Below are positions 1 through 21,177 of a stretch of 58,697 nt of DNA, piece after piece. The notes below the pieces were generated by a model, which searched no databases, was not told the DNA's origin, and worked only from the letters and a program-made list of their open reading frames with translations. The first letter of the stretch is position 1. The number at the start of each line of letters is the position of its first letter. The translations under genes and the position numbers were made by a program. Origin of the DNA: Deltaproteobacteria bacterium (GTDB lineage: Bacteria > Myxococcota_A > UBA9042 > CAIXZC01); the NCBI GenBank assembly GCA_016875215.1, contig VGRX01000004.1:1-58697 (forward strand), given 5' to 3'.

Positions 1-1418
1 TTTTCCTGATCCTTCCCGTCGCAGAGCTCGGGCAGCCCCGGCGCCACCTCGGCGTCGAGCGGCGCACAGTCGAGCTTGTCGGGGATCCCGTCGCCGTCGT
101 CATCCTCGTCGAGGCAGTCGGCCAGCCCGTCGAGGTCAGTGTCCGGGAACGGGTCGTCCACCTTGCCCGAGCAGTCGTTGTCCACGCCGTCGCACACCTC
201 GGGCTCGCCCGGGTTCACCTTCTTGTCGAACGGAGCGCAATCCTCGTCATCCGCGAACTGGTCGTTGTCGTCATCCGGATCGCACAGATCGCCGATGGTA
301 TCGAGGTCAGCGTCCTTCTGGTCCGGGTTGGCCACGTAGGGGCAGTTGTCCTCGTTGTTCTTCACCCCGTCGCCGTCCGCGTCGTCGGTCAGGCAGTCCG
401 CCTTGCCGTCGCCGTTGCTGTCCGGGAAGGTCTCGTCGACCAGGTTGTTGCAGTTGTTGTCCTGGCCGTCGCACAGCTCGGGCCCCGGCGTCTTGGCGTC
501 GCAGGTCCACTTGCCGTCCTCGCACACCTCCTCGCCGAAGCACTTGCCGTGCTCGTTCTTGACCATGCAGACATCGGGCAGGACGTCCTCGTCCGTGCTC
601 CCGTCGCAGTCGTCATCCATGCCGTTGCAGTCCTCGACCATCGGAACCGGCGCATCGCAGGCCGTAAGCCCCGACGGCGAGCACTTCCGCATACCCCAGC
701 ACACACCCGCTGCATTGGCCTCAAAGCACTCGGTATACGCCCCGTCGTCGATCCAGTCCTGTACGCAGCCGCACTCGTTCCCATCCCGCTTGCACTGGGA
801 GTGGGGCTTGCCCAGCACGTCCGTCACCTCCTCGCACGCGTACCCGCCCGGGCACTCCGAGGCCTCCAGGCACGGCTTTCCGCAGTAGGATCCGGCCGCA
901 CCATAGTCCACGCAGACGTCGCCATAGTCCACGCCGCCGACCAGGCAATCCGAGTTCTTCGTGCAGGGCCGGCACAGGCTCGTCGCAGGCGGTATGCACA
1001 GGAAGATCAGGTCCGGCTTGGCAGGCGGGTACTCCAGGCATTCCCACCCCAGCGGGCACTCCTCGGTACACGTCTGCGTGCACCGCTTGCCGTCCGGCGT
1101 GTCGATGCACCATGGCTCCAGGCAGTCCGCAGGCGCATCGCACGGCCACCCGGCTGCCCCCGGCTCCACACCTCCCGTATCGCCGAGATCCCCGCCGGCA
1201 TCGAGCACCCCCTCGGGCCACCAGGCCTCGGGCGCCAGCTCGGGAGCCACCTCCGGCCCCGGAACGTCGGCCGGCACGATCGAGTCCGCACCCCCATCCG
1301 CCACGGCATCGGGTCCGGGCTCCGCCACGTCGAACTCGAGCTGCACCCCACCGGTGCACGCCCCGAGGAACACGGTGACTGCAGCCATGGCGGCAAACGC
1401 CATTCCATGCCTTCTCAT
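1..1418 (-). CDS. Secreted/lipoprotein-type cysteine-rich protein (N-terminus present, C-terminus cut by window edge) with CDGxDNDC MopE-like putative metal-binding motifs and thrombospondin type-3 (Ca-binding) repeats
   Basis: Absent from the ORF track because it has no stop inside the window. My own minus-strand translation from ATG 1418..1416 (GGAGGA 6 nt upstream) gives MRRHGMAFAAMAAVTVFLGACTGG..., CNGMDDDCDGSTDE, LCDGQDNNCNNLVDE, DNCPYVANPDQKDADLDTIGDLCD, VCDGVDNDCSGKVDD ... ELCDGKDQE. The frame is open to position 1. Confidence 0.7.
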   Translation of the reverse strand, partial: MRRHGMAFAAMAAVTVFLGACTGGVQLEFDVAEPGPDAVADGGADSIVPADVPGPEVAPELAPEAWWPEGVLDAGGDLGDTGGVEPGAAGWPCDAPADCLEPWCIDTPDGKRCTQTCTEECPLGWECLEYPPAKPDLIFLCIPPATSLCRPCTKNSDCLVGGVDYGDVCVDYGAAGSYCGKPCLEASECPGGYACEEVTDVLGKPHSQCKRDGNECGCVQDWIDDGAYTECFEANAAGVCWGMRKCSPSGLTACDAPVPMVEDCNGMDDDCDGSTDEDVLPDVCMVKNEHGKCFGEEVCEDGKWTCDAKTPGPELCDGQDNNCNNLVDETFPDSNGDGKADCLTDDADGDGVKNNEDNCPYVANPDQKDADLDTIGDLCDPDDDNDQFADDEDCAPFDKKVNPGEPEVCDGVDNDCSGKVDDPFPDTDLDGLADCLDEDDDGDGIPDKLDCAPLDAEVAPGLPELCDGKDQE

Positions 1419-1702
1419 TTCGTCCTCCTGATGACCGGCTGCTCTCCCCTGTAGACGTCCTTCCTATGGCCCACCTTGACGACCAAAACGACGATTTCCT
1501 CATCCCGGATCTCGTAGATGACCCGATGGTCCCCCTGTCGGATCCGGTAGCGTTCCTGCCCGGACAGCTTCTCGCATCCCGGACCCCGGGGGTCGTCCGA
1601 GAGCCGTGCAAACGTCTTCACCAGTCTCCCGACCACCCGCTTGGGAAGGGCCCTCAAGTCCTTCGCCACGGACCGGCGAAACAGCAACCTATAGCTTCCC
1701 AT
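1415..1702 (-). CDS. RelE/ParE-family type II toxin
   Basis: 95 aa: LPKRVVGRLVKTFARLSDDPRGPGCEKLSGQERYRIRQGDHRVIYEIRDEEIVVLVVKVGHRKDVY is a RelE/ParE-type pattern. It overlaps the upstream antitoxin ORF by 14 nt. Its stop TGA overlaps the ATG of the next gene (ATGA). Confidence 0.85.
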   Translation of the reverse strand: MGSYRLLFRRSVAKDLRALPKRVVGRLVKTFARLSDDPRGPGCEKLSGQERYRIRQGDHRVIYEIRDEEIVVLVVKVGHRKDVYRGEQPVIRRTK

Positions 1703-4867: not shown

Positions 4868-5107
4868 GTGAGTCCGACGGTGTTTCGGTACAGGGGCTAC
4901 CGGTTCTTCTTCTTCTCTCGGGAGGAGCGCCGCGTTCATGTCCATGTGCACGCTGCGTCAGGCGAAGCCAAGTTCTGGGTCGAGCCGGAAGTGGAGTTGG
5001 CCCAGAGCTGGGGACTCGCAAAGGGAGAGCTGAATGGGCTTCTGGCGTTGGCAAAGGAGCGAAGAGATGAAATCACAGAATGTTGGAAAAAACACTTCGG
5101 AAGTTGA
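4868..5107 (+). CDS. DUF4160 domain protein
   Basis: VSPTVFRYRGYRFFFFSREERRVHVHVHAASGEAKFWVEPEVELAQSWGL fits the DUF4160 pattern (xxYRFFFxSxExxxPHxHVxxxxxxAKFW). GTG at 4868 is preceded by GGAGG with 8-nt spacing. The longer track ORF from 4727 adds non-homologous residues. Confidence 0.7.
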   Translation: MSPTVFRYRGYRFFFFSREERRVHVHVHAASGEAKFWVEPEVELAQSWGLAKGELNGLLALAKERRDEITECWKKHFGS

Positions 5108-5339
5108 GGTGCTCAACATTTCCAGGCACGGGCTTTGGCTTCTGCTTCATGAAGAGGAAGTGTTCCTGCCGTTTGACTTGTTTCCCTGGTTTCGCACCGC
5201 CAGCGTTGCTGCGGTGCTCAACGTACGCATGCTGAGTTCCGAGCACCTGTACTGGCCCGATCTCGATGTCGATCTGGAGCCCTCGTCCATCCGGTCGCCC
5301 GGGGACTACCCACTCGTGTCCCGGACGATCGAGTCGTGA
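5067..5339 (+). CDS. DUF2442 domain protein
   Basis: VEVLNISRHGLWLLLHEEEVFLPFDLFPWFRTASVAAVLNVRMLSSEHLYWPDLDVDLEPSSI fits the DUF2442 pattern (...yPxLxxAxxxExxxxxxxxxGxxIxWPxLDxDL). ATG at 5067 has AAGGAG 7 nt upstream. It overlaps the DUF4160 gene by 41 nt, so the start is uncertain. Confidence 0.65.
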   Translation: MKSQNVGKNTSEVEVLNISRHGLWLLLHEEEVFLPFDLFPWFRTASVAAVLNVRMLSSEHLYWPDLDVDLEPSSIRSPGDYPLVSRTIES

Positions 5340-5367: not shown

Positions 5368-6498
5368 ATGACTCTGCCATGGAAACGGAGGGGCCGAGCG
5401 AAGGTCACGCTGCTTCTACTTGCCGTCGCCGTCTTGCCCCCTTCCTGTCTCGAGTCCAACCCGCAGCCCTTCCCCGCGACCGATACGTCCCGGGGGGGAG
5501 GGGGCGGCCCGGACGCCGCGGGCAACAAGGGGTTGGACTGGGGGGCCCCCGAGAACCAGACCGATGGGGCCGTGGACTTCCGGGCCGAGATGCGCAGCCT
5601 GGTCCAGACGATTGCCGCCTACGCTCGAGCGGAGAACCCGGACTTCGTCGTGATCCCGCAGAACGGGCTCGAGCTGCTCACGCTGGACGGTGAGCCGGAC
5701 GGCCCGCTTGCTGACGAGTACATCGAGACCATCAGCGGCTGCGGACAGGAGGACCTCAACTTCGGATACCCCGGCCTGGGGGACGTCAGCCCTGCGGAGA
5801 TGACCGAACGGCTCACGGCCTTCCTCGACCGCCTTGAAGGCGCCGACCGTGATGCCCTCGTCATCGACTACTGCAAGAACGACGAGCAGACCGATGCCTC
5901 CCTTGCGGTCGCTGCCGATCACGGTTTCATTGCGTTCCCCGCGGACCGCCGCGAGCTGGACGACATCCCGGGGTACCCTCCGGAACCGCCGGACGTGAAC
6001 GAAGACGACGTGACAGAGCTGTCCCAGGCCAGCAACTTCCTCTACCTTATTAACCCGGGGGAGTTCGAATCCAGGCAGGCCTTCCTGCTGGCCATGGCGC
6101 AGACCGACTACGACCTGTTCGTGGTCGACGCGTTCTTCGACGACGAGCCGCTGAGCCCCGAAGAGGTGGAGGGGCTCAAGACCAAGGCCAACGGCGGCAG
6201 ACGCCTGGTCCTCTCCTACATGAGCATCGGCGAGGCCGAGGACTACCGATTCTACTGGCAGGAATCGTGGAACGACGACCCGCCCGCCTGGCTTGCGGCG
6301 GAGAACCCCGACTGGGAGGGGAACTACAAGGTCCGCTACTGGGACCCGGGCTGGCAGGCGATCCTGCTCGGATCGTCCGACAGCTACCTCGACCGCATCC
6401 TGGCGGCCGGATTCGACGGCGTCTACCTGGACATCATCGATGCCTTCCAGTGGTTCGAAGAGCAGTCTGGACAGGGGGAACATGGAGAACAAGACTGA
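5368..6498 (+). CDS. GH114-like / MJ1477-TM1410-family putative glycoside hydrolase (endo-alpha-1,4-polygalactosaminidase-like) lipoprotein
   Basis: Signal/lipobox LLLLAVAVLPPSC. RRLVLSYMSIGEAEDYRFYW, NYKVRYWDPGWQ and GFDGVYLDIIDAF are typical of the GH114/TM1410 TIM-barrel family. GAGGTGA lies 6 nt upstream of the ATG. Confidence 0.75.
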   Translation: MTLPWKRRGRAKVTLLLLAVAVLPPSCLESNPQPFPATDTSRGGGGGPDAAGNKGLDWGAPENQTDGAVDFRAEMRSLVQTIAAYARAENPDFVVIPQNGLELLTLDGEPDGPLADEYIETISGCGQEDLNFGYPGLGDVSPAEMTERLTAFLDRLEGADRDALVIDYCKNDEQTDASLAVAADHGFIAFPADRRELDDIPGYPPEPPDVNEDDVTELSQASNFLYLINPGEFESRQAFLLAMAQTDYDLFVVDAFFDDEPLSPEEVEGLKTKANGGRRLVLSYMSIGEAEDYRFYWQESWNDDPPAWLAAENPDWEGNYKVRYWDPGWQAILLGSSDSYLDRILAAGFDGVYLDIIDAFQWFEEQSGQGEHGEQD

Positions 6499-8662
6499 GG
6501 GCGCGTCGCAGGCCGGCGAACCCGCTGGAGCGGGGAACCTCGGCCGACTGCGGCTCGGCTGGATCCTTCCGACCACACTGGCTGTGCTCTGCCTCGCATC
6601 GGGAATCCTCCTGGCGCTGCTGATCATGCGCCGCCAGAATGCCGAGCGGACCGGCGTCGAGAAGGCTCGGGAAGCCGCAATCGCCGTCACCCGGGAGGCC
6701 GCTGCACGGATCTCCGAGATCACGCTTGCCGCCCGCAAGGAAGCCGACTTCCTGGCCGGTCGCCTCAGCCGCGGCGACCTCGACGGCGAGACCGCTCCCA
6801 ACGTCATGCGCGAGCTCATCGAGAGCAATCCCTCGTTCTACGGCGGGACCATCACGTACCGTCCGTATGGGCACGCACCGGGCGTCCGCCTCCATGCCCC
6901 CTACTGCATGCACCAGGACGGCTCGGTGATCTGCAAGCCGCTCGAGGACGACTACGACTACACCGCCGCGGGCACCGACTGGTACCTGCTGCCCATGAAG
7001 AACGGCCCCCAATGGGTCGAGCCCTATCGCTGCGGGTCCGGAAACGCCTACATGGCCACCTACTCCGCCCCCTTCTTCGCCCCGGGCGAACCCCAGGGCA
7101 CGGACCGCAAACCGCTTGGGGTCGTCACGATCGACATCACCGTGGATGAGCTCGAGCGGGTCAGCCGCTCCCTGGACTTCGGCCGGGGTGGCTTTGCCGC
7201 TCTGACTTCCAGGGAGGGCCGCTACTTCTACCATCCCAACACGGACCTGGTCACCGGCCGCAAGACTCTGCTCCAGGTAGCGGAAGAGCTCAACGACCCC
7301 GACCGAGTGCTCGTCGCAGGCCTTGCCGAACGGGGCGAGACTGGCGTCCTCCTGCACACCAGTACCACCACCGGCAGGAAGTCGTGGCTCGTCGTCGAGC
7401 CTGTTCCCGATACCGGCTGGTCCGTCCAGGGAACCTACTTGCTCACCGAGCTTCTCTCCAACGTCGTCGCGGCGCGGCGCATGAGCCTCGACGTCGTGAT
7501 CGCCGCCGTCGCCTTCGGCATCCTCCTGGCCGGCACCCTCTTTGCCGTGCGACCCGGCCGACACCGCATCTGGCTCCTGTCGACCATCATCTCGCTCCTC
7601 CTCGCCGCCGGAATCGGCCTCACCTGGCATCACTACATGGAATTCCATCCGACGACCGCGCACATCGGGACTCCGGTCACTGGCGTCACCGAGCTGGCCG
7701 GTGCGAAGCAGGACGTCCTCGCCTCGGCCCGCGACAAAGGAATCCCGGAACCGCAGTTCCTGCCCGTGGGCGTTTTCGTCCAGTCGGCCGAGTTCGTCGC
7801 GGCCAACAACGTCCAGGTCACCGGCTACGTCTGGGAACGGCTGGCACCAGGGCACAAGCCCGTGGATCTCCTCTTCCCCGAAGCCACCGACATGGAGATG
7901 CAGGAGTCGTACTCCCGCACCACGGACGAGTCGACGGTCATCGGCTGGCGCTTCCGCGGTACGCTTCGCGAGCGGTTCGAGTACAAGGAGTTCCCACTCG
8001 ATCGGGAGACCATCTGGCTCCGGGTCCGGGCCGCAAGCCCGATCGACCCCGTGGTCCTCGTGCCCGACCTCGACTCCTATCCCATTCATGCGCCGGTCTC
8101 CCGTCCCGGCCTCGCCAGCGACCTGGTGCTCCCGGGGTGGGATGCCATCAGCAGCTTCTTCTCACTCAAGAGCATCGCGTACACGACCAACTTCGGCCTC
8201 AAGAACGCGGGCATGCAGGGCGACTACCCCGAGCTGTTCTTCTGCATGGCCATCCAGCGACGCTTCAACGATGCCTTCATTTCCTACCTGACGCCCCTCC
8301 TCGTCGTGACCATGATGCTGTTCGGCATGCTGCTGGCCCTCACCCGCCACCCGGAACGCTTCTCCCTGCTCGGCCCCCAGACTTCCACGGTCCTCGGCTT
8401 CACAGCGGCGCTCTTCTTCGTGGTAATCTTCAGCCACATCGACCTGAGGCAGAAGCTCAGCGCCCAGAGTGTTTTCTATCTCGAATATTTTTACTTAATT
8501 ATGTATGTTGCAATACTGCTGGTGAGTATTATTTCGCTAGTATTCATGCTTGATGATAGGATAAAAGTAGTTCAATACAGGGACTGCCTGCTCCCGAAGG
8601 TGACCTACTTCCCGTTCCTGCTGCTGTCCTTCTTCGTCGTGACGATTGCGACCTTCTACTAG
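6482..8662 (+). CDS. Membrane protein: N-terminal TM + periplasmic Cache-like sensor + 2 TM + pentameric ligand-gated ion channel (Cys-loop receptor)-like extracellular and 4-TM channel domains
   Basis: Start at ATG 6482 (MENKTEG, GGGGGA upstream), overlapping the GH114-like gene by 17 nt. Cache-like segment: DDYDYTAAGTDWYLLPMKNGPQWVEPYRCGSGNAYMATYSAPFF. pLGIC-like segments: NNVQVTGYVWERL, YKEFPLDRETIWLRVRA (compare FPFDxQxCxLxF) and pre-M1 ELFFCMAIQRRFNDAFISYLTPLLVV, followed by four hydrophobic helices. Confidence 0.65.
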   Translation: MENKTEGASQAGEPAGAGNLGRLRLGWILPTTLAVLCLASGILLALLIMRRQNAERTGVEKAREAAIAVTREAAARISEITLAARKEADFLAGRLSRGDLDGETAPNVMRELIESNPSFYGGTITYRPYGHAPGVRLHAPYCMHQDGSVICKPLEDDYDYTAAGTDWYLLPMKNGPQWVEPYRCGSGNAYMATYSAPFFAPGEPQGTDRKPLGVVTIDITVDELERVSRSLDFGRGGFAALTSREGRYFYHPNTDLVTGRKTLLQVAEELNDPDRVLVAGLAERGETGVLLHTSTTTGRKSWLVVEPVPDTGWSVQGTYLLTELLSNVVAARRMSLDVVIAAVAFGILLAGTLFAVRPGRHRIWLLSTIISLLLAAGIGLTWHHYMEFHPTTAHIGTPVTGVTELAGAKQDVLASARDKGIPEPQFLPVGVFVQSAEFVAANNVQVTGYVWERLAPGHKPVDLLFPEATDMEMQESYSRTTDESTVIGWRFRGTLRERFEYKEFPLDRETIWLRVRAASPIDPVVLVPDLDSYPIHAPVSRPGLASDLVLPGWDAISSFFSLKSIAYTTNFGLKNAGMQGDYPELFFCMAIQRRFNDAFISYLTPLLVVTMMLFGMLLALTRHPERFSLLGPQTSTVLGFTAALFFVVIFSHIDLRQKLSAQSVFYLEYFYLIMYVAILLVSIISLVFMLDDRIKVVQYRDCLLPKVTYFPFLLLSFFVVTIATFY

Positions 8663-8830
8663 CGGATTGCCTCCGTGGCGAGGCGAAGCAGCGGCCCGAG
8701 TCGGATTGACTGAACCTCGGTAGCGGCCGGGGGACGTCTCCAACGGCCTCCCTTCGGTCCGGAGTTGGTTCCGGCCTCTCCGAACTGATCCATTCGAATG
8801 GCCTGGAATGCCGGTCCGAGCGGATTCCTC

Positions 8831-8859
8831 TTGACTTCCCGGACCGCAATCCCCATAAT
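8831..8859 (+). promoter_or_regulatory. Near-consensus sigma70-like promoter upstream of the sulfur-assimilation operon
   Basis: TTGACT (8831..8836), exactly 17 nt, then CATAAT (8854..8859), inside a locally AT-richer patch about 150 nt upstream of the cysteine synthase ATG. Confidence 0.45.
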
Positions 8860-8947
8860 GTCTACTGTATTTGTAGTGTTTTGCGCCGGCGGGGTCGGGT
8901 GGCGAACGGCCGGCAGATGCCCTGGGAATGGCCGTAGGAGGAATACC

Positions 8948-9004
8948 ATGACGAAGCTCGTGGCGGCCGCAACTGCGGTCGTTCTCACCGGGATGCGAGG
9001 TTGA
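8948..9004 (+). CDS. Candidate 18-codon upstream/leader ORF (MTKLVAAATAVVLTGMRG)
   Basis: AGGAGGA lies 5 nt upstream of ATG 8948. The stop TGA at 9002..9004 is 2 nt before the cysteine synthase ATG 9007. There is no homology evidence. Confidence 0.3.
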   Translation: MTKLVAAATAVVLTGMRG

Positions 9005-9006
9005 CC

Positions 9007-9987
9007 ATGCCCAATCGCCCCCTCAATCATGATCGGTCGCTCCGTCGCTACGATGACATCCGCCAGCTCATCGGTTCCCCGGAATCGCCGACTCCGCTCG
9101 TGAGGCTCAACCGGGTCGCCCGGGGGAACGCGGGGGTGTTCGTCAAGCTCGAGTGGTTCAATCCCTTCGGCTCGATCAAGGACAGGACCGCTCTCTATCT
9201 CCTCCGCGGGCTTGCGGAACGGGGCCTCCTGGACGGACGGGAGCTCGTGGAGCCCTCGTCGGGCAACACCGGGATCGCGCTGGCCGCGCTGGCCGCGCTG
9301 GCCGGCATCCGTCTCACGGTGACGATCCCGGACGGCGTCCCGGAGGAGAAGAAGGTCCTGCTGCGCATGCTTGGGGCCACCGTGATCGAAACGCCGGATG
9401 ACCTGTGCCCCATCGACCATCCCAAGGACGGGGCCATCGCATTGGCGCACTCCATTGCCGAAAGCCCGGCGAATGCCGGTCTGTACGTCATGCCCAACCA
9501 GTATGCCAATCCGGACAACGTGCGCGCACATTTCGAGACCACCGGGCCCGAGATCTGGAACCAGACCGAGGGGCAGGTACGGACGTTCGTGGCAGGATAC
9601 GGGACGTGCGGCACCATCACGGGCGTCGCCCGCTACCTCAAGGAACGGAATCCCGAAGTCCGGGTGGTGGCCGTGGAGCCGCAGCGCGGTCACCGCCTGC
9701 CCGGTCTGAAGAATCTCCAGGAGTCCAGGCAGCCGGAGATCCTCGATCGGTCTCTCATCGACGAGGTCGTGCGCGTCGACGACGGCCCAGCCTACGAAAT
9801 GACGGCCCGCCTATACAGGGAGGAGGGTCTCGTCGTCGGTCCGTCGACCGGGGCAATCGTGCATGCGGCGGTCTCGAAGTCCGCCATGGAGGAGGGGGTC
9901 GTCGTCGCGATCTCTCCCGACGGTGGCCAGAAGTATGGCAGCTTCTTCACGACCTGGCTCCGGCAGCAGCATCCGGGGTCGGGCTGA
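9007..9987 (+). CDS. PLP-dependent cysteine synthase family protein (CysM/CysK-like, second paralogue)
   Basis: TPLVRLNR, KLEWFNPFGSIKDRTA (PLP lysine motif), EPSSGNTGIALA and GTCGTITG. ATG 9007 has GAGG 6 nt upstream; the track starts at TTG 9001. Confidence 0.85.
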   Translation: MPNRPLNHDRSLRRYDDIRQLIGSPESPTPLVRLNRVARGNAGVFVKLEWFNPFGSIKDRTALYLLRGLAERGLLDGRELVEPSSGNTGIALAALAALAGIRLTVTIPDGVPEEKKVLLRMLGATVIETPDDLCPIDHPKDGAIALAHSIAESPANAGLYVMPNQYANPDNVRAHFETTGPEIWNQTEGQVRTFVAGYGTCGTITGVARYLKERNPEVRVVAVEPQRGHRLPGLKNLQESRQPEILDRSLIDEVVRVDDGPAYEMTARLYREEGLVVGPSTGAIVHAAVSKSAMEEGVVVAISPDGGQKYGSFFTTWLRQQHPGSG

Positions 9988-10014
9988 GAGCTGCGGGCCT
10001 GAAGGAGGCCAACC

Positions 10015-12417
10015 ATGGAGCGGTTCGATCTGAAGGCGGTTCAGGAGGCCCACCTCGACAAGCTGAGGGCAGCGACGACCGCGTTCCTCCAGGGGACGCT
10101 GCCGACAGCCCACTTCCGGGCAGTCCGCGTCCCCGCGGGCATCTATGAGCAGCGGGAGAACGGCCGCTACATGGTCCGCATCCGCTGTACTGCGGGACTG
10201 GTGACGTCAGGGCAGCTCAGGACGCTTTCCGATGCGGCGGAGCGGTTCGGAAGCCCTATGCTCCATCTCACCACGCGACAGGACATCCAGATCCACGACC
10301 TGCTGGCCCAGAACCTCCTCCCCGTGGTCGAGATGCTGGCCGGAGTCGGGCTCTCGTCGCTTGGCGGAGGAGGAAACACCGTCAGGAACGTCACGGTCTG
10401 CCCGATGGCCGGCTTCTGCCCGCAGGAGGAGTTCGACGTGACCCCGCATGCGAGGATGCTCACCACGGCTCTGCTCTCGACCGGAGGGAACATCGATCTG
10501 CCTCGCAAGTTCAAGGTCGCGCTGTCCGGCTGCGAGGTCGATTGCGCAGGCGCCCGGTTCAACGACGTCGGGTTCCTTCCGGCCTCGGCAGAGTCCGACA
10601 AGCGGAAGGCAGACGAAGCCCCCTCCGCGTGCAGGTTCCGTGTGTTTGCGGGGGGGGGAATGGGAGCGCGCAGCCTCCCTGGCTTCCCGCTCGAGGAGTC
10701 ACTGCCCGAGAACGAAGCCGTGGCCGCGACGCGTGCGATCCGGGAGGTGTTCGACCGATTCGGAAACCGGCGCAACCGCCACCAGGCCCGGCTCCGGTTC
10801 CTCGTGGAGCGAATGGGAACCGACGAGTTCGCAGCGCACTATCGTCGGGCCCGGTCGAGGTCGGACGGGATGCCCCCCCCTCCGGGAGCCTCTCCGGACT
10901 GGACCCGGACCGAGCCGGTCGTGGGCGGGGCCGGCCTCGCTCCTGTGACTTCGGGACCGGAGGGAACCGGGCCCCGCATCGAGCCCGACTCGGCCGATCT
11001 CGTCCGCTGGATGGAGCAGAATGTGACGCCGCAGCGCCAGGCCGGCTACTTCTTCCTGACCCTGCCGGTCTTCCTCGGAGAGATCCAGGCGGCCTCCCTT
11101 CGGGCCGTTGCGGACGTGGCGGAGCGGGTCGGAACGGGAGTGGTCCGGGTCGTCCAGACCCAGAATCTCCTGCTGCCGGGCGTACCGGCTGCCAGCCTGA
11201 GGCTGGCCCACTCGCTGCTGCGGGGCGCAGGCCTGGCCCGGCCGGTTCCCCGGGTTCTCCGAGAGATGACGGTTTGTGCGGGCTCGTCGACCTGCCGACT
11301 GGGGATCTGCCAGTCGCGTGGGCTCGCAACGGCAGTCGAAGCCAGGCTGGAATCGTCGAGGCTTTCTCTCGATGCTCTGTCGGGCGTCAGCATCCACATC
11401 AGCGGCTGCCCCAACTCCTGCGGCCGGCATCCGCTTGCGGACGTGGGCCTGGCAGGGGCCGTTCGCCGCGTCCAGGGGCGGGCCACGCCCCACTACGAAT
11501 TCCGGCTGGGCACGGGCATCCCGGGAACACTGGCCGAGCCCGGTCCCACGCTGCCCGCCCGCCTGGTTCCCGAGGCGGTGGAGAAGCTGCTGGCCGGACT
11601 GGCGGACGCACGAGCCGTCCTTCCCGCCAGCTCCCCTTTGAGTCAGAAGGGGCTGCTCGAACAGTTTGCCGGCTTGCAGGAGGTTCCGGATCTGCACATC
11701 GACTGGGGAGATCGGGCGGAGTTCTCCCTGGCAGGCCGCGGCCCTGGCGAATGCGGGGCCGGGGTCTTCGACCTCATCGAGCTCGACCTGGCCACGGCCG
11801 ACGAAGCCCTGGGGCAGGGCCGCTTGATCGATGCGACCGTCGCGTCCGCAAGAGCGCTCCTGGTCACCCGAGGGCTGTCCGCATCCAGCGACCTCGAAGC
11901 GCTCGAGCTCTTCCGCACCAGCCTCGTCGGGCCGGATCTGCTGGCCGTGGACCATCTCCCTGTCGTCGACCTGGCAGTCGATACGCTCCGGAAGACAGGT
12001 GCGGTCCCCCCACCGGACAGGGAGCATGTTGCCGCTCTCCTGGCCGCAGTGCGCGAGCTGTACGGTCGGCTGGACGCCTCCCTCCGGCTGCCCGGGCCCC
12101 CGGCATCCCCGTTGCAGGAGGGCCCGCCGGCCGAGCAGGCGCAGCCGCCGACTCCGACCCGCGGGAGCGTGGCGAACACCCCCGCCCCCTCCCCCCCCCC
12201 CCCCACGGAGGATCTGCGCGGGGTGACGTGCCCGCTCAATTTCGTCAAGGCCAGGATGGCGCTCGCCCGCGTTCCCATTGGCGACGAGCTCCACGTGCTG
12301 CTGGATGCCCCGGGTGCCCGCAACGTGCCGGAGAGCCTGGTCAAGGACGGCCAGCAGGTGCTGGAGCTGGCCGAGGAGGAGTCCTGGTGGCGCCTCCGGC
12401 TCCGTCGTCTACGATGA
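10015..12417 (+). CDS. Assimilatory sulfite (or nitrite) reductase haemoprotein, sirohaem/4Fe-4S type, fused to a C-terminal TusA/SirA-like sulfur-carrier domain
   Basis: NIR_SIR-like segments: MLHLTTRQDIQIHDL, GGGGNTVRNVTVCP, KFKVALSGC. Cluster cysteines: TVCAGSSTCRLGIC and HISGCPNSCGRH. The C-terminal ~75 aa, DLRGVTCPLNFVKARMALARVPIGDELHVLLD, matches the TusA CPxP-type motif. AAGGAGG lies 6 nt upstream. Confidence 0.8.
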   Translation: MERFDLKAVQEAHLDKLRAATTAFLQGTLPTAHFRAVRVPAGIYEQRENGRYMVRIRCTAGLVTSGQLRTLSDAAERFGSPMLHLTTRQDIQIHDLLAQNLLPVVEMLAGVGLSSLGGGGNTVRNVTVCPMAGFCPQEEFDVTPHARMLTTALLSTGGNIDLPRKFKVALSGCEVDCAGARFNDVGFLPASAESDKRKADEAPSACRFRVFAGGGMGARSLPGFPLEESLPENEAVAATRAIREVFDRFGNRRNRHQARLRFLVERMGTDEFAAHYRRARSRSDGMPPPPGASPDWTRTEPVVGGAGLAPVTSGPEGTGPRIEPDSADLVRWMEQNVTPQRQAGYFFLTLPVFLGEIQAASLRAVADVAERVGTGVVRVVQTQNLLLPGVPAASLRLAHSLLRGAGLARPVPRVLREMTVCAGSSTCRLGICQSRGLATAVEARLESSRLSLDALSGVSIHISGCPNSCGRHPLADVGLAGAVRRVQGRATPHYEFRLGTGIPGTLAEPGPTLPARLVPEAVEKLLAGLADARAVLPASSPLSQKGLLEQFAGLQEVPDLHIDWGDRAEFSLAGRGPGECGAGVFDLIELDLATADEALGQGRLIDATVASARALLVTRGLSASSDLEALELFRTSLVGPDLLAVDHLPVVDLAVDTLRKTGAVPPPDREHVAALLAAVRELYGRLDASLRLPGPPASPLQEGPPAEQAQPPTPTRGSVANTPAPSPPPPTEDLRGVTCPLNFVKARMALARVPIGDELHVLLDAPGARNVPESLVKDGQQVLELAEEESWWRLRLRRLR

Positions 12418-14090
12418 GGTGCGACATGGAAAAAACCGGTCGTTCCACGCCCCCTCGGGGCTCGCTGCGTCGCTCGCCCCGGACCCTGCTCACCCTGGCC
12501 TTCGATGTCGAAGGTCTGCCCTGCCTGGTGGTCGGGGGCGGACGTATCGGAACTCGAAAGGCGCTGACCCTGCTCGACCACGGCGCAACGGTATCCGTCC
12601 TGGCTCCGGCCCTGTCCACGAGGCTCCGCATGGAGGCCTGTTCAGGACGCCTCCGATGGCTCCCGGCGGAGTTCGCTGCCGGCGCCACCACGGGCTACCG
12701 CCTCGTCGTGGCCGCGACCGACTCGGCCCGAGTCAACGCAGCCATCGCGGACGAGGCCGCCAAGCAGGGTACCCCGTGCTGCAATGTCTCGGACCGGGGC
12801 CGGACCCGGGTGCTGTTTCCCGCGTGCAGCCGCGTGGGGGAGGTCACCGTGGCAATCCACACCGGAGGGACCGACTGCCGGCGCTCCCGCCGACTGAGCA
12901 AGGCCGCTGCCGCCTGGCTGGAGGCGCAGCAGCAGGACAGGCCGGCTGCCCCCGCAGGAATGGGGGGGCCCTCCCTCAAGCTCGTGAGCTCCCCGGCAGC
13001 ATCGGCTCCGCCCGCGGGACTGGTGCTCCTCGTCGGGGCCGGCCCCGGAGCACCGGATCTGCTCACGCTTCGAGGGCTGCATGCTCTGCAGCGCGCGGAT
13101 GTCATCATCCAGGACGATCTGCTTCCCGAGGACTACGTGGAGCACCTGCCGGTGGACATGTCCCGGACCCGCCTCATCCGCCTGGGTTCGGGAGCGGCAC
13201 GGGAATCACAGGCCGAGATCGGAGTGATGCTGGTGCGGCTCGCCGGAGCCGGCCTGGTCGTGGCTCGTCTCAAGGGAGGCGATCCCGGGGTCTTCGGACG
13301 GCTCGAAGAGGAGCTGTCGGCCCTTTACGAGGCAGGCATCCCGGTCGAGGTGGTGCCGGGGACGACCGCGGGCCTCGCAGCGGCTTGTGCGGCCGGACTT
13401 CCGGCCACACGGCGCGGCCAGGGCCGGTCCGTGGCCCTGGCAACGGCCCGGACCGCAGACGGCGGAGGCGTTCCCGAGCTGCCCCGTGCGGATACACTCC
13501 TGCTGTACATGGGGGTCGCTGCGACAAGGGAGATCCAGGGGCGCCTGCTGGCCTCGGGCTGGGCTCCCGAGACCCCTTGCCGCATCTTCGAGCGGGCCAC
13601 CCAGCGCTTCGAGCGTGTCCTGGACGCGTGCCTGGAGAGGCTGCCTGAGCTGTGCACGGCGATGGGAGTTCGGAGCCCCGCGCTGCTCATGGTGGGGATC
13701 GGGGCAACCTCGGTCGGGGACTCCGCATGCCACCCCCGGATCCTCTGCTTCGGCAACAATCCGCAGCCCTACCGATGCCTGGGGCACGTCCTGCACTGGC
13801 CGGCGTCCCATCCGGACTTCCCGGAACGCCTTGCCCCGGCTGAAGTGGCCCTGTTCCAGCGTCCGGACGAGGTGGACGCTATTTGCCTCCGCCTCGCACG
13901 GGAGGACCTCCCTTCCCACATCTGGTGCGAAGGGGATTCCACCCTGGACGCCGCCTTGAGAAGAGGGCTCCCGGCCGTCGCGCCTCCCCCTCTCGCCCTC
14001 GCTCGGCCGCGTGGCCCGGATCGTCGGCACGACGCCGTGACGAGGCTTCTGAAGAACGACGGGTTGGACGTGGGATCCGGGCATGGCTGA
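12414..14090 (+). CDS. cysG: Sirohaem synthase-like: precorrin-2 dehydrogenase/ferrochelatase (SirC/CysG-N) + uroporphyrinogen-III C-methyltransferase (CobA/CysG-C) with ~130-aa unassigned C-terminal extension
   Basis: LVVGGGRIGTRKALTLLDHGATVSVLAP (Rossmann fold), then LVGAGPGAPDLLTLRGLHALQRADVIIQDDL and RLKGGDPGVFGR (methyltransferase). ATG 12414 overlaps the sulfite reductase stop (ATGA); ATG 12426 is an alternative. It is part of the 1182-aa artefactual track ORF 10542..14090. Confidence 0.8.
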   Translation: MRCDMEKTGRSTPPRGSLRRSPRTLLTLAFDVEGLPCLVVGGGRIGTRKALTLLDHGATVSVLAPALSTRLRMEACSGRLRWLPAEFAAGATTGYRLVVAATDSARVNAAIADEAAKQGTPCCNVSDRGRTRVLFPACSRVGEVTVAIHTGGTDCRRSRRLSKAAAAWLEAQQQDRPAAPAGMGGPSLKLVSSPAASAPPAGLVLLVGAGPGAPDLLTLRGLHALQRADVIIQDDLLPEDYVEHLPVDMSRTRLIRLGSGAARESQAEIGVMLVRLAGAGLVVARLKGGDPGVFGRLEEELSALYEAGIPVEVVPGTTAGLAAACAAGLPATRRGQGRSVALATARTADGGGVPELPRADTLLLYMGVAATREIQGRLLASGWAPETPCRIFERATQRFERVLDACLERLPELCTAMGVRSPALLMVGIGATSVGDSACHPRILCFGNNPQPYRCLGHVLHWPASHPDFPERLAPAEVALFQRPDEVDAICLRLAREDLPSHIWCEGDSTLDAALRRGLPAVAPPPLALARPRGPDRRHDAVTRLLKNDGLDVGSGHG

Positions 14091-15075
14091 GCTCCTCCTG
14101 GCCGTGACGGCTGCAGCCTTTGCGATGAACATGGGTGGAAGCGGGCTGGCGCCAGCGTTCTCGTCTGCGCTGGGGGCCCGCCTGGTCAGCCGGCGCCTGG
14201 CACCGGTCCTCTTCGGCGTGTTCGTGTGCCTGGGGGCCATGCTGCTCGGTTCCCAGGTCGCACGGACCCTGGGGAAGGACCTGGTGGCGGTCGAGCATCT
14301 CAACCAGACCGCTGCCCTCGTGGTCGTGACCTCCGCGGCCGCATCTCTGCTCCTCGCCAACGTCCTCGGCGTGCCCCAGTCGACCTCCTGGGTGACGGTG
14401 GCTTCCATCTCGACGGTGGGCCTCCTTCACTCGAGCCTCAACACCGAAACCCTGTTCCACCGGCTGATCCCGGCCTGGTTGCTCCTCCCCTGCGCAGCGT
14501 TCCTCCTCACCCGCGTGTCCCTCTCGCTCTTCTACCCGCTTCGGCCCGACAACTTCCGCAGGATCGAGTGGCTGACCCGCCGGCAGCGCGCACTGAAGGG
14601 GTTCGTCCTGGCCAGCTCCTGCCTCGTCGCCTTCTCCATCGGCTCCAACAACGTGGCCAATGTCGTCGCCCCCATTGCAGCGGCAGGCATCCTCGATCCG
14701 ATTCTGGGATTCGCGCTCTCCGCCCCCCTGTTCGGCCTCGGCGCTGCGCTCCTGACCAGGCCCAGCCGCACCGTCGGGACCGCCATCGTCCCCCTGGGCC
14801 CCATCGCGGCCACCATCGTCAACCTGGTCACCGGACTGCTCCTGCTGACCGCCTCGGTCTTCGGGATTCCCCAGTCGCTCGTCCAGATTATGACCGCTTC
14901 CGTCATTGCCGTGCGATGGGTCAAGGACGGCCCGGAGGCCGTCGCCAACCATGCCCCGCTCCGCAAGGTCCTTCTCCTCTGGATCATCTCCCCCCTGATC
15001 GCCGCACTGATCACCTGGCTGCTCCTCCCCGTGGCAGCCGGCCTGATGGACGGAGGCACCGGCCATGGTCCCTGA
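14083..15075 (+). CDS. PiT (PHO4) family inorganic anion permease; by context a candidate CysP-like sulfate permease
   Basis: Polytopic membrane protein. NMGGSGLAPAFSSALGA, GVPQSTSWVTVASI, SIGSNNVANVVAPI and GIPQSLVQIMTASVIA are duplicated PiT signature-like segments. It overlaps neighbours on both sides (8 and 11 nt). Confidence 0.75.
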   Translation: MAELLLAVTAAAFAMNMGGSGLAPAFSSALGARLVSRRLAPVLFGVFVCLGAMLLGSQVARTLGKDLVAVEHLNQTAALVVVTSAAASLLLANVLGVPQSTSWVTVASISTVGLLHSSLNTETLFHRLIPAWLLLPCAAFLLTRVSLSLFYPLRPDNFRRIEWLTRRQRALKGFVLASSCLVAFSIGSNNVANVVAPIAAAGILDPILGFALSAPLFGLGAALLTRPSRTVGTAIVPLGPIAATIVNLVTGLLLLTASVFGIPQSLVQIMTASVIAVRWVKDGPEAVANHAPLRKVLLLWIISPLIAALITWLLLPVAAGLMDGGTGHGP

Positions 15076-16012
15076 GAAGAAGACCGGAAGCGTCATCGCG
15101 GATAGCGTCCTCGACCTCGTCGGCTCGACCCCGCTCGTAAGGCTGAACCGCGTCGTCGGACCCGATTCCGCGGAGGTGCTCGTCAAGGTCGAATCGTTCA
15201 ACCCGGGCGGCAGCATCAAGGACCGGGTCGCGCTCAACATGATCCGCATGGCAGTAGAGGCCGGCCTCGTCGACCGCGACACCACGATTCTCGAACCGAC
15301 GACCGGCAACACCGGAATCGGCCTGGCCATGGTGTGCGCCGCCCTGGGCTATCGCTGCACCGTCGTCATGCCCGACAGCATGTCGCTCGAGCGGGTCATG
15401 CTGCTGCGACGCTTCGGTGCCGAGGTCATCCTGACTCCCGGGAAGGAGGACATGGAAGGCGCGGTGCGCAAGGCCAGGGCTCTCGCTGCCCAACGGGGGA
15501 ACTGCTTCATTCCCTCCCAGTTCGAGAACCGGGCCAACCCCGATGCTCACCGGGATACCACCGCCCGGGAGATCCTCGCCGCGGTCGGCGAACGGCTGGA
15601 CGTCCTCGTGGTCGGGGTGGGAACCGGAGGGACCCTGACCGGCCTGGGGCAGGCTCTGCGACGGCACCTGCCCGACCTCAGGATCGTGGCCGTCGAGCCC
15701 GAATACTCCCCGGTCCTGAGCCGTGGGACCAGCGGACGACACAAGATCCAGGGGCTGGGGGCCGGATTCGTCCCGCAGACGCTCGACCGGTCCCTCATCT
15801 CCAGCATCGTGACGGTCAGCGACGAGGATGCCTTCGACATGATGGCCCGGCTCTGCCGGGAGGAGGGAATCCTCGCCGGCATCTCCTCCGGAGCGGCCGT
15901 CTTCGCAGCAACGGGCCTTGCCCGGACCCTCGGCCACGGCCGCCGCATCGTCGCCATCCTGCCCGATACCGGCGAGCGGTACCTGGGAGTGCAACACTAC
16001 TTCCAGACTTGA
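15065..16012 (+). CDS. cysK: Cysteine synthase A (O-acetylserine sulfhydrylase)
   Basis: GSTPLVRLNR, KVESFNPGGSIKDRVA, EPTTGNTGIGLA, GVGTGGTLTG, KIQGLGAGFVP and GISSGAA are textbook CysK motifs. Confidence 0.9.
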   Translation: MVPEKKTGSVIADSVLDLVGSTPLVRLNRVVGPDSAEVLVKVESFNPGGSIKDRVALNMIRMAVEAGLVDRDTTILEPTTGNTGIGLAMVCAALGYRCTVVMPDSMSLERVMLLRRFGAEVILTPGKEDMEGAVRKARALAAQRGNCFIPSQFENRANPDAHRDTTAREILAAVGERLDVLVVGVGTGGTLTGLGQALRRHLPDLRIVAVEPEYSPVLSRGTSGRHKIQGLGAGFVPQTLDRSLISSIVTVSDEDAFDMMARLCREEGILAGISSGAAVFAATGLARTLGHGRRIVAILPDTGERYLGVQHYFQT

Positions 16013-16042
16013 GAACAGGACCCATCCCACTGCGACCGGCAG

Positions 16043-16066
16043 GGGAGCGGAGATGACTTCGCTCCC
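16043..16066 (+). terminator. Possible stem-loop after cysK
   Basis: GGGAGCG (16043..16049), a 10-nt loop, then CGCTCCC (16060..16066), 30 nt after the cysK stop. No U-tract follows, so this is weak. Confidence 0.25.
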
Positions 16067-16081
16067 GGGGGAGGCGGGGTC

Positions 16082-16110
16082 TTGCATCCCGTCGCGAGCA
16101 AGTCTACATT
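16082..16110 (+). promoter_or_regulatory. Candidate sigma70-like promoter for the ceramidase-like gene
   Basis: TTGCAT, a 17-nt spacer, then TACATT. The leader to ATG 16129 would be very short. Confidence 0.3.
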
Positions 16111-16128
16111 CCGGTCGGAGGTGGTCCG

Positions 16129-17757
16129 ATGCGGAACGTGGGGGTGATGGCGTGCCTGTTCCCGGCCCTTCTGGCCGGAGCATCCTGCAGCAATGGTGGC
16201 GATTCGGCGGCAGATCTGTTGTCCGATGTTCGCAATGGCGATTCCGACCGCGGGGATCTGACCCGCCACGACCTGGTTTCGGATGCGCGAACTGAGGCCG
16301 GGCCGGGTGACGCGGGCGCGGACGCTGCGGGGGACGCTGGCGCCGAGGCCGGGGCTTCGGACGGCCGCTCCTCTCTCGACTGGACCGAACCACTGCCCGG
16401 CGAGGCGATACTGGCCGGTGCGGCGAAGATCGACATCACTCCGACGTTCGAGCCCTACACCGACCTGGACGGCAACGGCCACTGGGACGAGGGAGAACCG
16501 TTCGAAGACCTCGACGCAGACGGCCAGTTGGACACGCTCGAGCTCGGCGGCTTCGGCTGGCGCCACCCCACCAAGGTCCACGACCCGCTCTGGAGCCGGT
16601 CCGCTGCATTTCGGGTCCACGGGGAGTGGCTGGTGCTGTGCGCCGTGGATTCCCTGGGGCTGGGCATCGCCCGCGTGGAAGGGATCAAGGACAAGGTCCT
16701 GGCCCGGCTGGGCAATCCGGCCTCGTTGCCTCGTGAGCGCCTTGTGATTGCCTCCACGCACAGCCATGCAGTCCCGGATTCCATCGGGATCTTCGGAGAA
16801 GCGGGTGTCGACAAGACCTACCTTTCCTGGCTCGAGGTCCAAGCCGCAGAATCCATCGTCCAGGCCATTCTGGCGGTCGAGCCGGCCGAGCTCACAGTCA
16901 CGTCGGTCGACGTCCCCGACCTGGTCCGCGACATCGACGAGCCCGACATCATCGACCCGTACGTCGGGATCATCCAGGCCAGGAAACCGGGCGAGGGGAA
17001 GGCCATTGCGACGCTCGTCTCCATCGCCAACCACCCGGAAACCACGTGGAAGGACAACACCGAGATCTCTGCGGACTTCCCGTTCTACCTCCTGGCCGAC
17101 ATCGAGACCGCCGAGGGGGGAACTGCCGTCTACTTCAGCGCAGACCTCGGGCTCATGCAGTCTCCGGTCAAGCTCGGCAGCGAAGGCTTCGAACGGGCCG
17201 AGCTTATCGGCAAGGGGTACGCCGAGGCCGTCCTTTCCGCCCTCGGGCCCGCGGCACCGGTTCCCTCCGAACAGCTCGTCCCGTCCTTCGGATTCGCAAA
17301 GATCCCCGCTGCCCTGGAGAACCCCGAGCTCTACATCGGCCTTGCCGACGGCGTGGTCGATGGCTACCAGGGCTACATCTACCTCACCGGCGAGCCTCCG
17401 TGCGACTTCTTCGGCTGCCTCGACCTCCCCGTCGCGGTCTGGCGCCTCGGCGACATCCTCACCCTGGTCACGCTTCCCGGCGAGTTCACGCCCGAGCTCA
17501 TCATCGGCGGCATCACCACCCCGCCCGACTACCAGGGCATGTACCCCGATGCCCCACCAGAGCCGGTGATGATCGACCACCTCGTCACTCCGGACCGCTT
17601 CGTGATCGGCCTTGCCGGCATGGAATGCGGCTACGTCTACCCCAAGATGACCCACGACCCGAAGGCGCACTTCAGCCAGAGCCACGCTCCCGGCCCCAAC
17701 ATGGCCATGGCCCTGATGACGGGCATCGCCGCGCTCCTGGATCAGGTCAACGAATAG
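16129..17757 (+). CDS. Neutral/alkaline ceramidase-like lipoprotein
   Basis: Lipobox LLAGASC. AAKIDITP, DPLWSRSAAFR, LVIASTHSHAVPDSIG and LPGEFTPEL resemble the neutral ceramidase N-terminal domain family. GGAGGTGG lies upstream. Confidence 0.7.
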   Translation: MRNVGVMACLFPALLAGASCSNGGDSAADLLSDVRNGDSDRGDLTRHDLVSDARTEAGPGDAGADAAGDAGAEAGASDGRSSLDWTEPLPGEAILAGAAKIDITPTFEPYTDLDGNGHWDEGEPFEDLDADGQLDTLELGGFGWRHPTKVHDPLWSRSAAFRVHGEWLVLCAVDSLGLGIARVEGIKDKVLARLGNPASLPRERLVIASTHSHAVPDSIGIFGEAGVDKTYLSWLEVQAAESIVQAILAVEPAELTVTSVDVPDLVRDIDEPDIIDPYVGIIQARKPGEGKAIATLVSIANHPETTWKDNTEISADFPFYLLADIETAEGGTAVYFSADLGLMQSPVKLGSEGFERAELIGKGYAEAVLSALGPAAPVPSEQLVPSFGFAKIPAALENPELYIGLADGVVDGYQGYIYLTGEPPCDFFGCLDLPVAVWRLGDILTLVTLPGEFTPELIIGGITTPPDYQGMYPDAPPEPVMIDHLVTPDRFVIGLAGMECGYVYPKMTHDPKAHFSQSHAPGPNMAMALMTGIAALLDQVNE

Positions 17758-18860: not shown

Positions 18861-18899
18861 CTCTCCTCCTGTTTCGTCGCGGCGCCCTTCGGACTGCTC

Positions 18900-20969: not shown

Positions 20970-21177
20970 GGCACTCCTCCTACGCCCCGCCCCTTCCACT
21001 TGGCCACAGGTCAGGGATGGGCGCAAGGAAAAAGGACGGGACCTGGGTAACCGTTCAGTCTCGGTTTGACCGAAAACGCCCATGGCCCCTCTGGTCCGAG
21101 CCCCGACGGTGAGGGGCCGCAACAGGCCTGCTCGTCAACCCAGCAGTGATCGGTTGCCCAGCGGCGCCACAAATCAG

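Follow-up and report, generated by a model that had tools for sequence, protein, structure and literature searches.

A predicted pentameric ligand-gated ion channel subunit with an N-terminal dCache sensor, encoded beside a GH114-type hydrolase gene

Contig VGRX01000004.1 of a Deltaproteobacteria bacterium (GenBank assembly GCA_016875215.1) was analyzed over a stretch of 58,697 nucleotides (nt; hereafter the window), in which two open reading frames (ORFs) on the same strand overlap by 17 nt. The upstream ORF codes for a 376-amino-acid (aa) GH114/TM1410-type hydrolase, and the downstream one for a 726-aa protein in which an earlier note, made from the sequence alone, had recognized a Cache-like sensor fused to a module resembling ligand-gated ion channels of the pentameric kind (pLGICs). 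The locus raises the question of whether such a sensor-channel fusion is indeed encoded, and whether its overlap with the hydrolase gene marks a unit in which a polysaccharide breakdown product gates an ion channel, as the same note proposed. We think it likely that the downstream gene codes for a divergent prokaryotic pLGIC (Pro-loop receptor) subunit with an N-terminal, membrane-anchored dCache sensor, and that the overlap with the GH114 gene is a lineage-specific juxtaposition and not a conserved pair.

The channel module, the sensor, and their topology

A family profile built from an alignment of 44 homologues (A1) gave 71 matches at E <= 10 against Protein Data Bank (PDB) sequences, and GLIC and its chimeras account for all of the best 60 of the 71 (best E 7.5e-4); the profile alignment runs from the beta6-beta7 loop through M4, pairing the family YPxDxQ motif with YPFDSQ in GLIC and the arginine preceding M1 (R593) with GLIC R192. 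Comparison of A1 with GLIC by hhalign extends over the complete extracellular domain, beginning at beta1 and reaching the start of M1 (probability 95.85%, E 6.5e-9, 178 columns). An AlphaFold2 (AF2) model of residues 381-726, computed with A1, has a mean predicted local distance difference test score (pLDDT) of 92.3 and a predicted template-modeling score (pTM) of 0.87, and in it a helix at the N-terminus is followed by ~10 strands and four long helices. Foldseek retrieved 811 PDB chains with this model at E <= 1e-3, and every one of the best 50 is a pLGIC, among them GLIC, GLIC-GABA-A chimeras, GABA-A and glycine receptors, sTeLIC, and DeCLIC; for these 50, E-values reach down to 4e-14, TM-scores are 0.56-0.76, and identities are 11-15% over ~335-370 aligned columns, nearly the full length. 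Because the profile search, hhalign, AlphaFold2, and Foldseek are four independent lines, we regard the pLGIC relationship as computationally established, and the C-terminal module as a predicted member of the Pro-loop/Cys-loop superfamily.

The signature of the superfamily, [F/Y]PxD together with a pre-M1 arginine, is present as F504-P505-L506-D507 and R593, and within the family P505 is conserved at 100%, D507 at 85%, and R593 at 93%. Like other prokaryotic members, the protein has a short M3-M4 loop and lacks the Cys-loop cysteines. The three peptides that the earlier note had picked out as beta-sandwich and pre-M1 segments are all present in the 726-aa protein: NNVQVTGYVWERL (aa 442-454), EFPLDRETIWLRV (aa 503-515), and QRRFNDAFISYLTP (aa 592-605).

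A Kyte-Doolittle scan of the complete protein finds seven hydrophobic segments (aa 31-49, 338-356, 363-381, 603-621, 637-655, 672-690, and 707-725), and a full-length AF2 model built from an 88-sequence full-length alignment (A6) has a pLDDT of 92.8 and a pTM of 0.88. The subunit is predicted to be a protein with seven transmembrane (TM) helices, and the domain order read in the earlier note (a TM helix, a Cache domain, a two-TM hairpin, a pLGIC beta-sandwich, and four TM helices) is borne out by profile, hhalign, and structure prediction, with both AF2 models giving the expected beta-sandwich plus four helices. TM3 has a conserved face formed by W364 (89%), S367 (69%), S371 (61%), G377 (65%), and W382 (84%). 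Short family members of 370-400 aa lack the dCache domain and retain one N-terminal TM helix, with a tryptophan at its periplasmic end, ~50 residues ahead of a conserved PTGVF strand; in all members inspected there is either an additional TM helix at the N-terminus or a TM hairpin together with a dCache sensor. Because the single helix of the short members is equivalent to TM3, we infer that the family core consists of one N-terminal helix (TM0), the ligand-binding domain, and M1-M4, in front of which TM1, the dCache domain, and TM2 were added.

The sensor reading likewise holds up, with two Pfam models above their cutoffs across aa 107-315: MCP-like_PDC_1 (PF22673) at aa 107-225 (E 3.6e-15, 56.8 bits versus a cutoff of 27) and dCache_1 (PF02743) at aa 146-315 (E 2.2e-13, 50.8 bits versus a cutoff of 45). 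The AF2 model has the dCache_1 layout of a stalk helix and two PAS-like (PDC) modules, flanked by TM1 and TM2, and the closest solved sequences are the dCache domains of two kinases, one from Shewanella (3LIC, E 5e-12) and one from Methanosarcina mazei (3LI8), followed by PctA, PctB, and PctC. Like these histidine kinase and chemoreceptor sensors, the domain has dCache_1 and PDC_1 matches, here with the conserved YDYT...WY...W.EPY...Y..PF scaffold; unlike them, its output is a predicted channel and not a kinase or methyl-accepting chemotaxis protein (MCP) module. It also departs from the amino acid-binding motif of the dCache_1AA class, YxxxxRxWY...Y...D (PMC8915833), reading Y160, four residues, T165, one residue, W167, and Y168. 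An amino acid ligand cannot be assumed because T165 replaces the motif arginine, at a position that is variable in the family; D218, taken as the equivalent of the final aspartate, is only 21% conserved.

Columns conserved at 80% or more in A6 make up 25% of the beta-sandwich and 17% of M1-M4 versus 4-5% of the dCache modules, a contrast that is inflated because the A6 set was gathered with similarity to the C-terminal half as its basis; the distribution is consistent with a variable sensor attached to a conserved transducer and pore. The window protein keeps 60 of the 65 such columns in the beta-sandwich and TM domain, as well as all of the invariant residues (G448, W451, P505, P528, Y533, G543, R656, Y675, and P711). 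The family also has a signature of its own, Y666-L-E668-Y-F-Y671 at the start of M3 together with R656 at the end of M2, invariant or nearly so, and no counterpart of either was noticed in the GLIC alignment; these residues may form a gating interface.

The hydrolase gene and its junction with the channel gene

Both ORFs described in the earlier note are found in the window with the 17-nt overlap that it gave, and a public Logan contig encoding an identical 726-aa protein carries an independent gene call of the same two genes. The NCBI version of the channel protein is 740 aa long, starting from an ATG at 6440, which would lengthen the overlap to 59 nt. We prefer the ATG at 6482, because a Shine-Dalgarno-like purine run (GGGGGA) lies a few nucleotides 5' of it and no such signal precedes 6440; the hydrolase gene is overlapped whichever start is used. 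Because the C-terminal module of the channel has 1533 representative homologues and the hydrolase more than 6600 at E <= 1e-10, we take both to be real, conserved genes and not chance ORFs.

The assignment of the upstream gene to the GH114/TM1410 type stands. Its product matches Pfam Glyco_hydro_114 (PF03537; E 5e-16, 59 bits versus a cutoff of 27) and scores above the curated TIGR01370 cutoff for putative glycoside hydrolases of the MJ1477/TM1410 family (E 8e-57, 192.6 bits versus 181.25), and several homologues, up to 82% identical, are labeled endo-alpha-1,4-polygalactosaminidase at NCBI. The N-terminal leader, LLLAVAVLPPSC, is signal- or lipoprotein-like, ending in LPPSC ahead of a Gly/Pro-rich linker, and suggests that the hydrolase is a lipoprotein. 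By these matches the product would belong to the polygalactosaminidase-like GH114/TM1410-MJ1477 family, which is linked to the channel only by lying next to it in this one lineage.

That pairing does not recur. A tblastn search with the hydrolase over ~120 family loci (1.46 Mb) found it on the window's own contig only, even at E < 1, and in none of the other loci; a GH114 gene near those loci would have been detected because members of the TM1410 subfamily share 50-60% identity across phyla. In a Pfam census of the nearest genes, 72 upstream and 76 downstream, GH114 likewise does not recur. Two sister contigs, L124 and L125, share synteny and 77-87% DNA identity with the window, keep the DUF3160 gene (divergent) and the GH114 gene (orthologues at 76% and 82% identity), and have no channel gene after it. 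By blastn, homology between the window and these contigs ends at 6461, just past the hydrolase sequence encoding DAFQWFE, and resumes at 16376 (L124) and 18897 (L125), so that the channel gene stands at the edge of a ~9.9-kb lineage-specific block (Table 1). L124 has a DUF5722 lipoprotein gene (Pfam E 2e-34) in the slot after GH114, unrelated but overlapping by the same 17 nt, and comparison of window 6440-6500 with L124:9073-9135 finds 13 of 19 bases identical from the ATG to just past the stop, which suggests that the 3' junction of GH114 is ancestral and the body of the downstream gene was swapped. The hydrolase gene of L125 simply ends, and a convergent gene is next. The survey of gene neighborhoods that the earlier note had called for thus went against the conserved pairing it envisaged: as read from these comparisons, the post-GH114 junction is a variable slot, and the overlap would reflect the slot and not a conserved partnership.

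Downstream of the channel gene, the block carries a sulfur-assimilation-like set (window 9001-16375), in which a PALP/cysK-like enzyme is accompanied by a sulfite reductase-TusA fusion, a siroheme synthase, and a PHO4-family permease, with one additional ORF. The cysK-like gene is preceded by a promoter-like site, and for this reason we suggest that the channel gene is not co-transcribed with the sulfur genes. Upstream, between the DUF3160 and GH114 genes, is a toxin-antitoxin-like pair of small genes, DUF4160/DUF2442 (window 4868-5339), that is missing from both sister contigs, where the DUF3160-GH114 intergenic region is <200 nt. On either side of the region (window 1-1435 and 18721-21034) are large secreted proteins that carry TSP_3 and Cu-binding MopE repeats and are kept in the sister contigs.

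Table 1. Positions of the two genes, the parts of the predicted channel subunit, and nearby features in the window (residue ranges are those of the 726-aa protein)
Feature	Position	Strand	Basis
Putative GH114/TM1410-type glycoside hydrolase, 376 aa	5368..6498	+	PF03537 and TIGR01370 matches
Overlap of 17 nt, channel start/hydrolase stop (ATG...ACTGA)	6482..6498	+	Sequence; same geometry with unrelated DUF5722 gene in sister contig L124
Gene for the predicted dCache-pLGIC subunit (726 aa; seven TM helices predicted)	6482..8662	+	Gene call, Pfam, hydropathy, AF2
Short cytoplasmic N-terminus and TM1, aa 1-49	6482..6628	+	Hydropathy
Single helix spanning TM1 and dCache stalk	aa 20-97		AF2
Periplasmic dCache sensor, aa 50-325: stalk helix, membrane-distal and membrane-proximal modules	6629..7456	+	PF22673, PF02743, 3LIC similarity, AF2
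Two PDC modules	aa 121-320		AF2
TM2-TM3 helical hairpin, aa 328-387, cytoplasmic-side loop of ~4 residues	7463..7642	+	Hydropathy, AF2, conservation
TM2; turn of ~4 residues; TM3	aa 328-355; aa 360-387		AF2
Predicted pLGIC extracellular domain, aa 397-593: N-terminal helix and beta-sandwich	7670..8260	+	AF2 (pLDDT ~92), Foldseek, hhalign
Helix; beta-sandwich	aa 402-419; aa 425-593		AF2
Pro-loop (Cys-loop equivalent), F504-P505-L506-D507	7991..8002	+	Aligned to GLIC YPFD; family conservation
Channel TM domain M1-M4, aa 595-725, preceded by R593 (pre-M1)	8264..8656	+	Hydropathy, profile, AF2, conservation
M1; M2; M3; M4	aa 595-619; 634-659; 666-690; 703-725		AF2
Block of ~9.9 kb missing from sister contigs: channel, cysK-like, sulfite reductase-TusA, siroheme synthase, PHO4-family	6462..16375	.	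blastn versus L124, L125
Sigma-70-like promoter match, TTGACT-17-CATAAT, before cysK-like gene	8831..8859	+	Consensus match only

Family spread, recurrent neighbors, and known relatives

An exhaustive HMMER search of 1.84 billion cluster representatives returned 1533 proteins at E <= 1e-3, of which 836 are at E <= 1e-30, and the channel family thus comprises at least 1533 clusters at 50% identity. Most of the top matches are 670-760 aa long with the match at the C-terminus and the same layout, and 66 of 85 loci share homology over the N-terminal sensor-hairpin region. Scanning one genome for each species, with a nine-sequence alignment as query, gave 283 relatives, distributed among Alpha-, Beta-, Gamma-, and Deltaproteobacteria, Acidobacteriota, Chloroflexota, Cyanobacteria, Gemmatimonadota, Nitrospinota, and archaea including Methanosarcina and Methanolobus. 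Several variations on the layout were seen. Six loci (L010, L028, L040, L054, L074, and L083) have paired adjacent ORFs of the family, in several cases one copy with and the other without dCache, raising the possibility of heteromeric channels. Versions of ~1270 aa, with ~550 extra N-terminal residues before the sensor-hairpin-channel unit, are present in a Methanosarcina sp. and a Methanobacteriota archaeon (L047:5100-8924 and L064:5103-8906). A Bestrophin-like channel gene lies convergent and directly downstream of a 597-aa family member in L002 (7806-8651), L003, and L004.

The only recurrent nearest neighbor of the channel gene is one for a type I periplasmic binding protein (Peripla_BP_6), directly upstream in 14 of 72 loci (L022:448-1638, L023:5546-6784, L029:5578-6735, and 11 others), the end of which often overlaps the channel start codon, as in Nitrosomonas, Cellvibrio, and other Gammaproteobacteria. 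A different context is provided by the two closest full-length homologues (34-36% identity), which sit inside extracellular contractile injection system (CIS, here eCIS) clusters in the order CIS tape-measure, AAA ATPase, 740-aa unknown, TPR protein, dCache-pLGIC, 366-aa unknown, and eCIS_core proteins (L121:1-14097, L122, and L123:1-14094). Of 123 family loci, 14 are flanked by homologues of eCIS_core (PF13699) and five by tape-measure homologues; the eCIS_core-flanked hosts include Cellvibrio, Rheinheimera, Methanosarcina, and Methanolobus, and further loci with this association are L015, L023, L024, L067, L076, L077, L011, L026, L054, L102, and L113. An AAA ATPase near the Nitrosomonas copies was considered as an eCIS ATPase and rejected, as it is FtsH, and those loci were dropped from the eCIS count. 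PADLOC defense models gave no match for the channel, the hydrolase, or two unknown proteins of the eCIS clusters.

The earlier note had pointed to Tasneem et al. (2005) for pLGICs with N-terminal sensors, and aptly so, as that paper (PMC549065; Tasneem, Iyer, Jakobsson, and Aravind, Genome Biol) describes this architecture: pLGICs (there named ART-LGICs, for ligand-gated ion channels of the acetylcholine receptor type) fused to MCP-N and Cache were predicted in Methanosarcina, Cytophaga, and Microbulbifer, as were fusions and operons with periplasmic binding proteins, and a chemosensory role was proposed. The proteins described there share with ours the order of Cache-type sensor, beta-sandwich, and four-TM channel, and because the host ranges overlap (here Methanosarcina, Cytophagales, and Cellvibrionaceae), the family is very probably the same class, as judged by that description of hosts and architecture. 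In the passages considered, however, the extra domains are placed between a signal peptide and the ligand-binding domain and a TM2-TM3 hairpin goes unmentioned, whereas in the present protein TM helices lie on both sides of the sensor, for a predicted seven per subunit.

Among individual channels, GLIC, the proton-gated pLGIC of Gloeobacter violaceus (for example, PDB 3EAM), is the best match in sequence and structure, sharing the YPFD Pro-loop motif, the pre-M1 arginine, the lack of Cys-loop cysteines, and the short M3-M4 loop. Identity is only 12-14%, however, and GLIC has a cleavable signal peptide with neither an N-terminal sensor nor extra TM helices, whereas the family here adds a helix before the beta-sandwich and the YLEYFY motif at the start of M3. 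DeCLIC of Desulfofustis, a Foldseek match, was called in 2022 the only pLGIC with an N-terminal domain of determined structure; that accessory periplasmic domain modulates gating (PMC9897478), but it is not a Cache, consisting of two jelly-roll lobes without intervening TM helices, whereas the dCache domain here is connected by way of a TM hairpin. The Pro-loop signature was defined by Jaiteh et al. (2016), who did not discuss Cache fusions, and we found no experimental study of Cache-pLGICs in the literature. The gene is a rather divergent member of a class known computationally and experimentally untouched; its arrangement of seven TM helices including a TM hairpin, the fact that Pfam and NCBIfam miss the channel half, and how large the family is seem not to have been set out earlier.

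Competing readings and implications for the family

Several observations weigh against a sensor-gated channel that is independent of the hydrolase. The HMMER comparison with Neur_chan_LBD (PF02931) and Neur_chan_memb (PF02932) that the earlier note had recommended gives no match at E <= 1 in the 726-aa protein, and a single-sequence phmmer search with aa 381-726 against PDB sequences returns only noise and no pLGIC, so it is profiles that carry membership at the level of sequence. The GLIC HMM alignment needs an indel inside M2, and when it was combined with helix boundaries and conservation to place the pore, at least three M2 registers remained possible; family conservation gives no evident conserved charged selectivity residue in the M1-M2 linker. 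The presumed loop B, as aligned to GLIC, is off consensus, with R516 in place of W and A517, S519, P520, and P523 in place of H, D, F, and N, and the protein also departs from the family at E452, D462, and F710, such that it could be functionally atypical. The translational overlap implies that hydrolase and channel are co-expressed in this organism, which is probably the case. The channel reading nonetheless holds on the profile, fold, and structure evidence. The Neur_chan domains are absent from all 57 homologues scanned, an NCBIfam scan of the 726-aa protein finds no channel family, and we conclude that the Pfam failure reflects model coverage and not fold.

If the protein is a channel subunit of this kind, its modeled topology would run from a cytoplasmic N-terminus through TM1, the periplasmic dCache domain, TM2, a very short cytoplasmic turn, and TM3 to a periplasmic helix, the beta-sandwich, and M1-M4. 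By analogy with the family, five subunits would assemble around an M2-lined pore, and a periplasmic small molecule would bind the variable membrane-distal dCache pocket, the conserved beta-sandwich interfaces, or both. The change on binding would reach the pore via the Pro-loop, pre-M1, and M2-M3 interface, and possibly also through the TM2-TM3 hairpin packed on the channel TM bundle; ion flux would then alter the membrane potential.

The proposal that lipoprotein hydrolase and channel form a functional unit, with released oligosaccharides or amino sugars binding the Cache domain and gating the channel, draws on the 17-nt overlap, which suggests translational coupling, and on the likelihood that both products face the periplasm. 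It is largely refuted by non-recurrence: in the surveyed loci neither the tblastn search nor the census of nearest neighbors turned up another such pair, and in the syntenic sister contigs the GH114 orthologue is followed by a DUF5722 gene or by none, and we hold it to be very improbable. What stands of the earlier interpretation is its domain reading, and what falls is the channel gated by a GH114 product. Nearly as improbable is that the window copy is a degenerate or non-conducting paralogue that keeps the fold and has lost ligand gating. Departures from residues conserved at 80% or more (positions 429, 452, 462, 516, and 710) and a loop-B-like segment lacking the family W-H-x-D-F motif speak for decay, but the ORF is intact, the invariant residues and nearly all of the highly conserved columns are kept, and the AF2 model is confident.

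The injection-system clusters around the two closest homologues, together with the eCIS_core genes that flank a minority of the loci, suggest instead that in this family the pLGIC fold would not be a classical chemosensory channel and would serve CIS as a triggerable membrane-permeabilizing or depolarizing device, for example in particle release or regulation, with the window copy an orphan. Most loci lack such genes, however, no homologue of the eCIS genes is detectable in the 58.7-kb window, our literature search found no experimental work or paper linking eCIS and pLGICs, and the association could be one of shared mobile context; we consider this explanation unlikely. A broader and still tentative proposal, to which we give a modest chance, is that these proteins are a distinct seven-TM branch of pLGICs, with a core of an uncleaved TM0, ligand-binding domain, and M1-M4 to which most members add TM1, dCache, and TM2, such that the dCache signal would reach the pore within the membrane via the TM2-TM3 hairpin and, in some species, the channel would act as a trigger or release valve in an eCIS operon. 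We know of no pLGIC for which gating through a TM hairpin packed on the TM bundle has been described. Our preferred explanation remains the divergent Pro-loop receptor subunit with a dCache sensor, placed next to the hydrolase gene in this lineage.

GLIC, ELIC, and DeCLIC serve as structural models for human neurotransmitter receptors; to our knowledge, almost nothing is known of the role that prokaryotic pLGICs have in microbes. The analysis corrects a tempting operon-based hypothesis for the hydrolase-channel locus, and indicates that the class of Cache fusions predicted in 2005 forms a very large family, present in many bacterial phyla and in methanogenic archaea, and a concrete target for structure determination and ligand screening.

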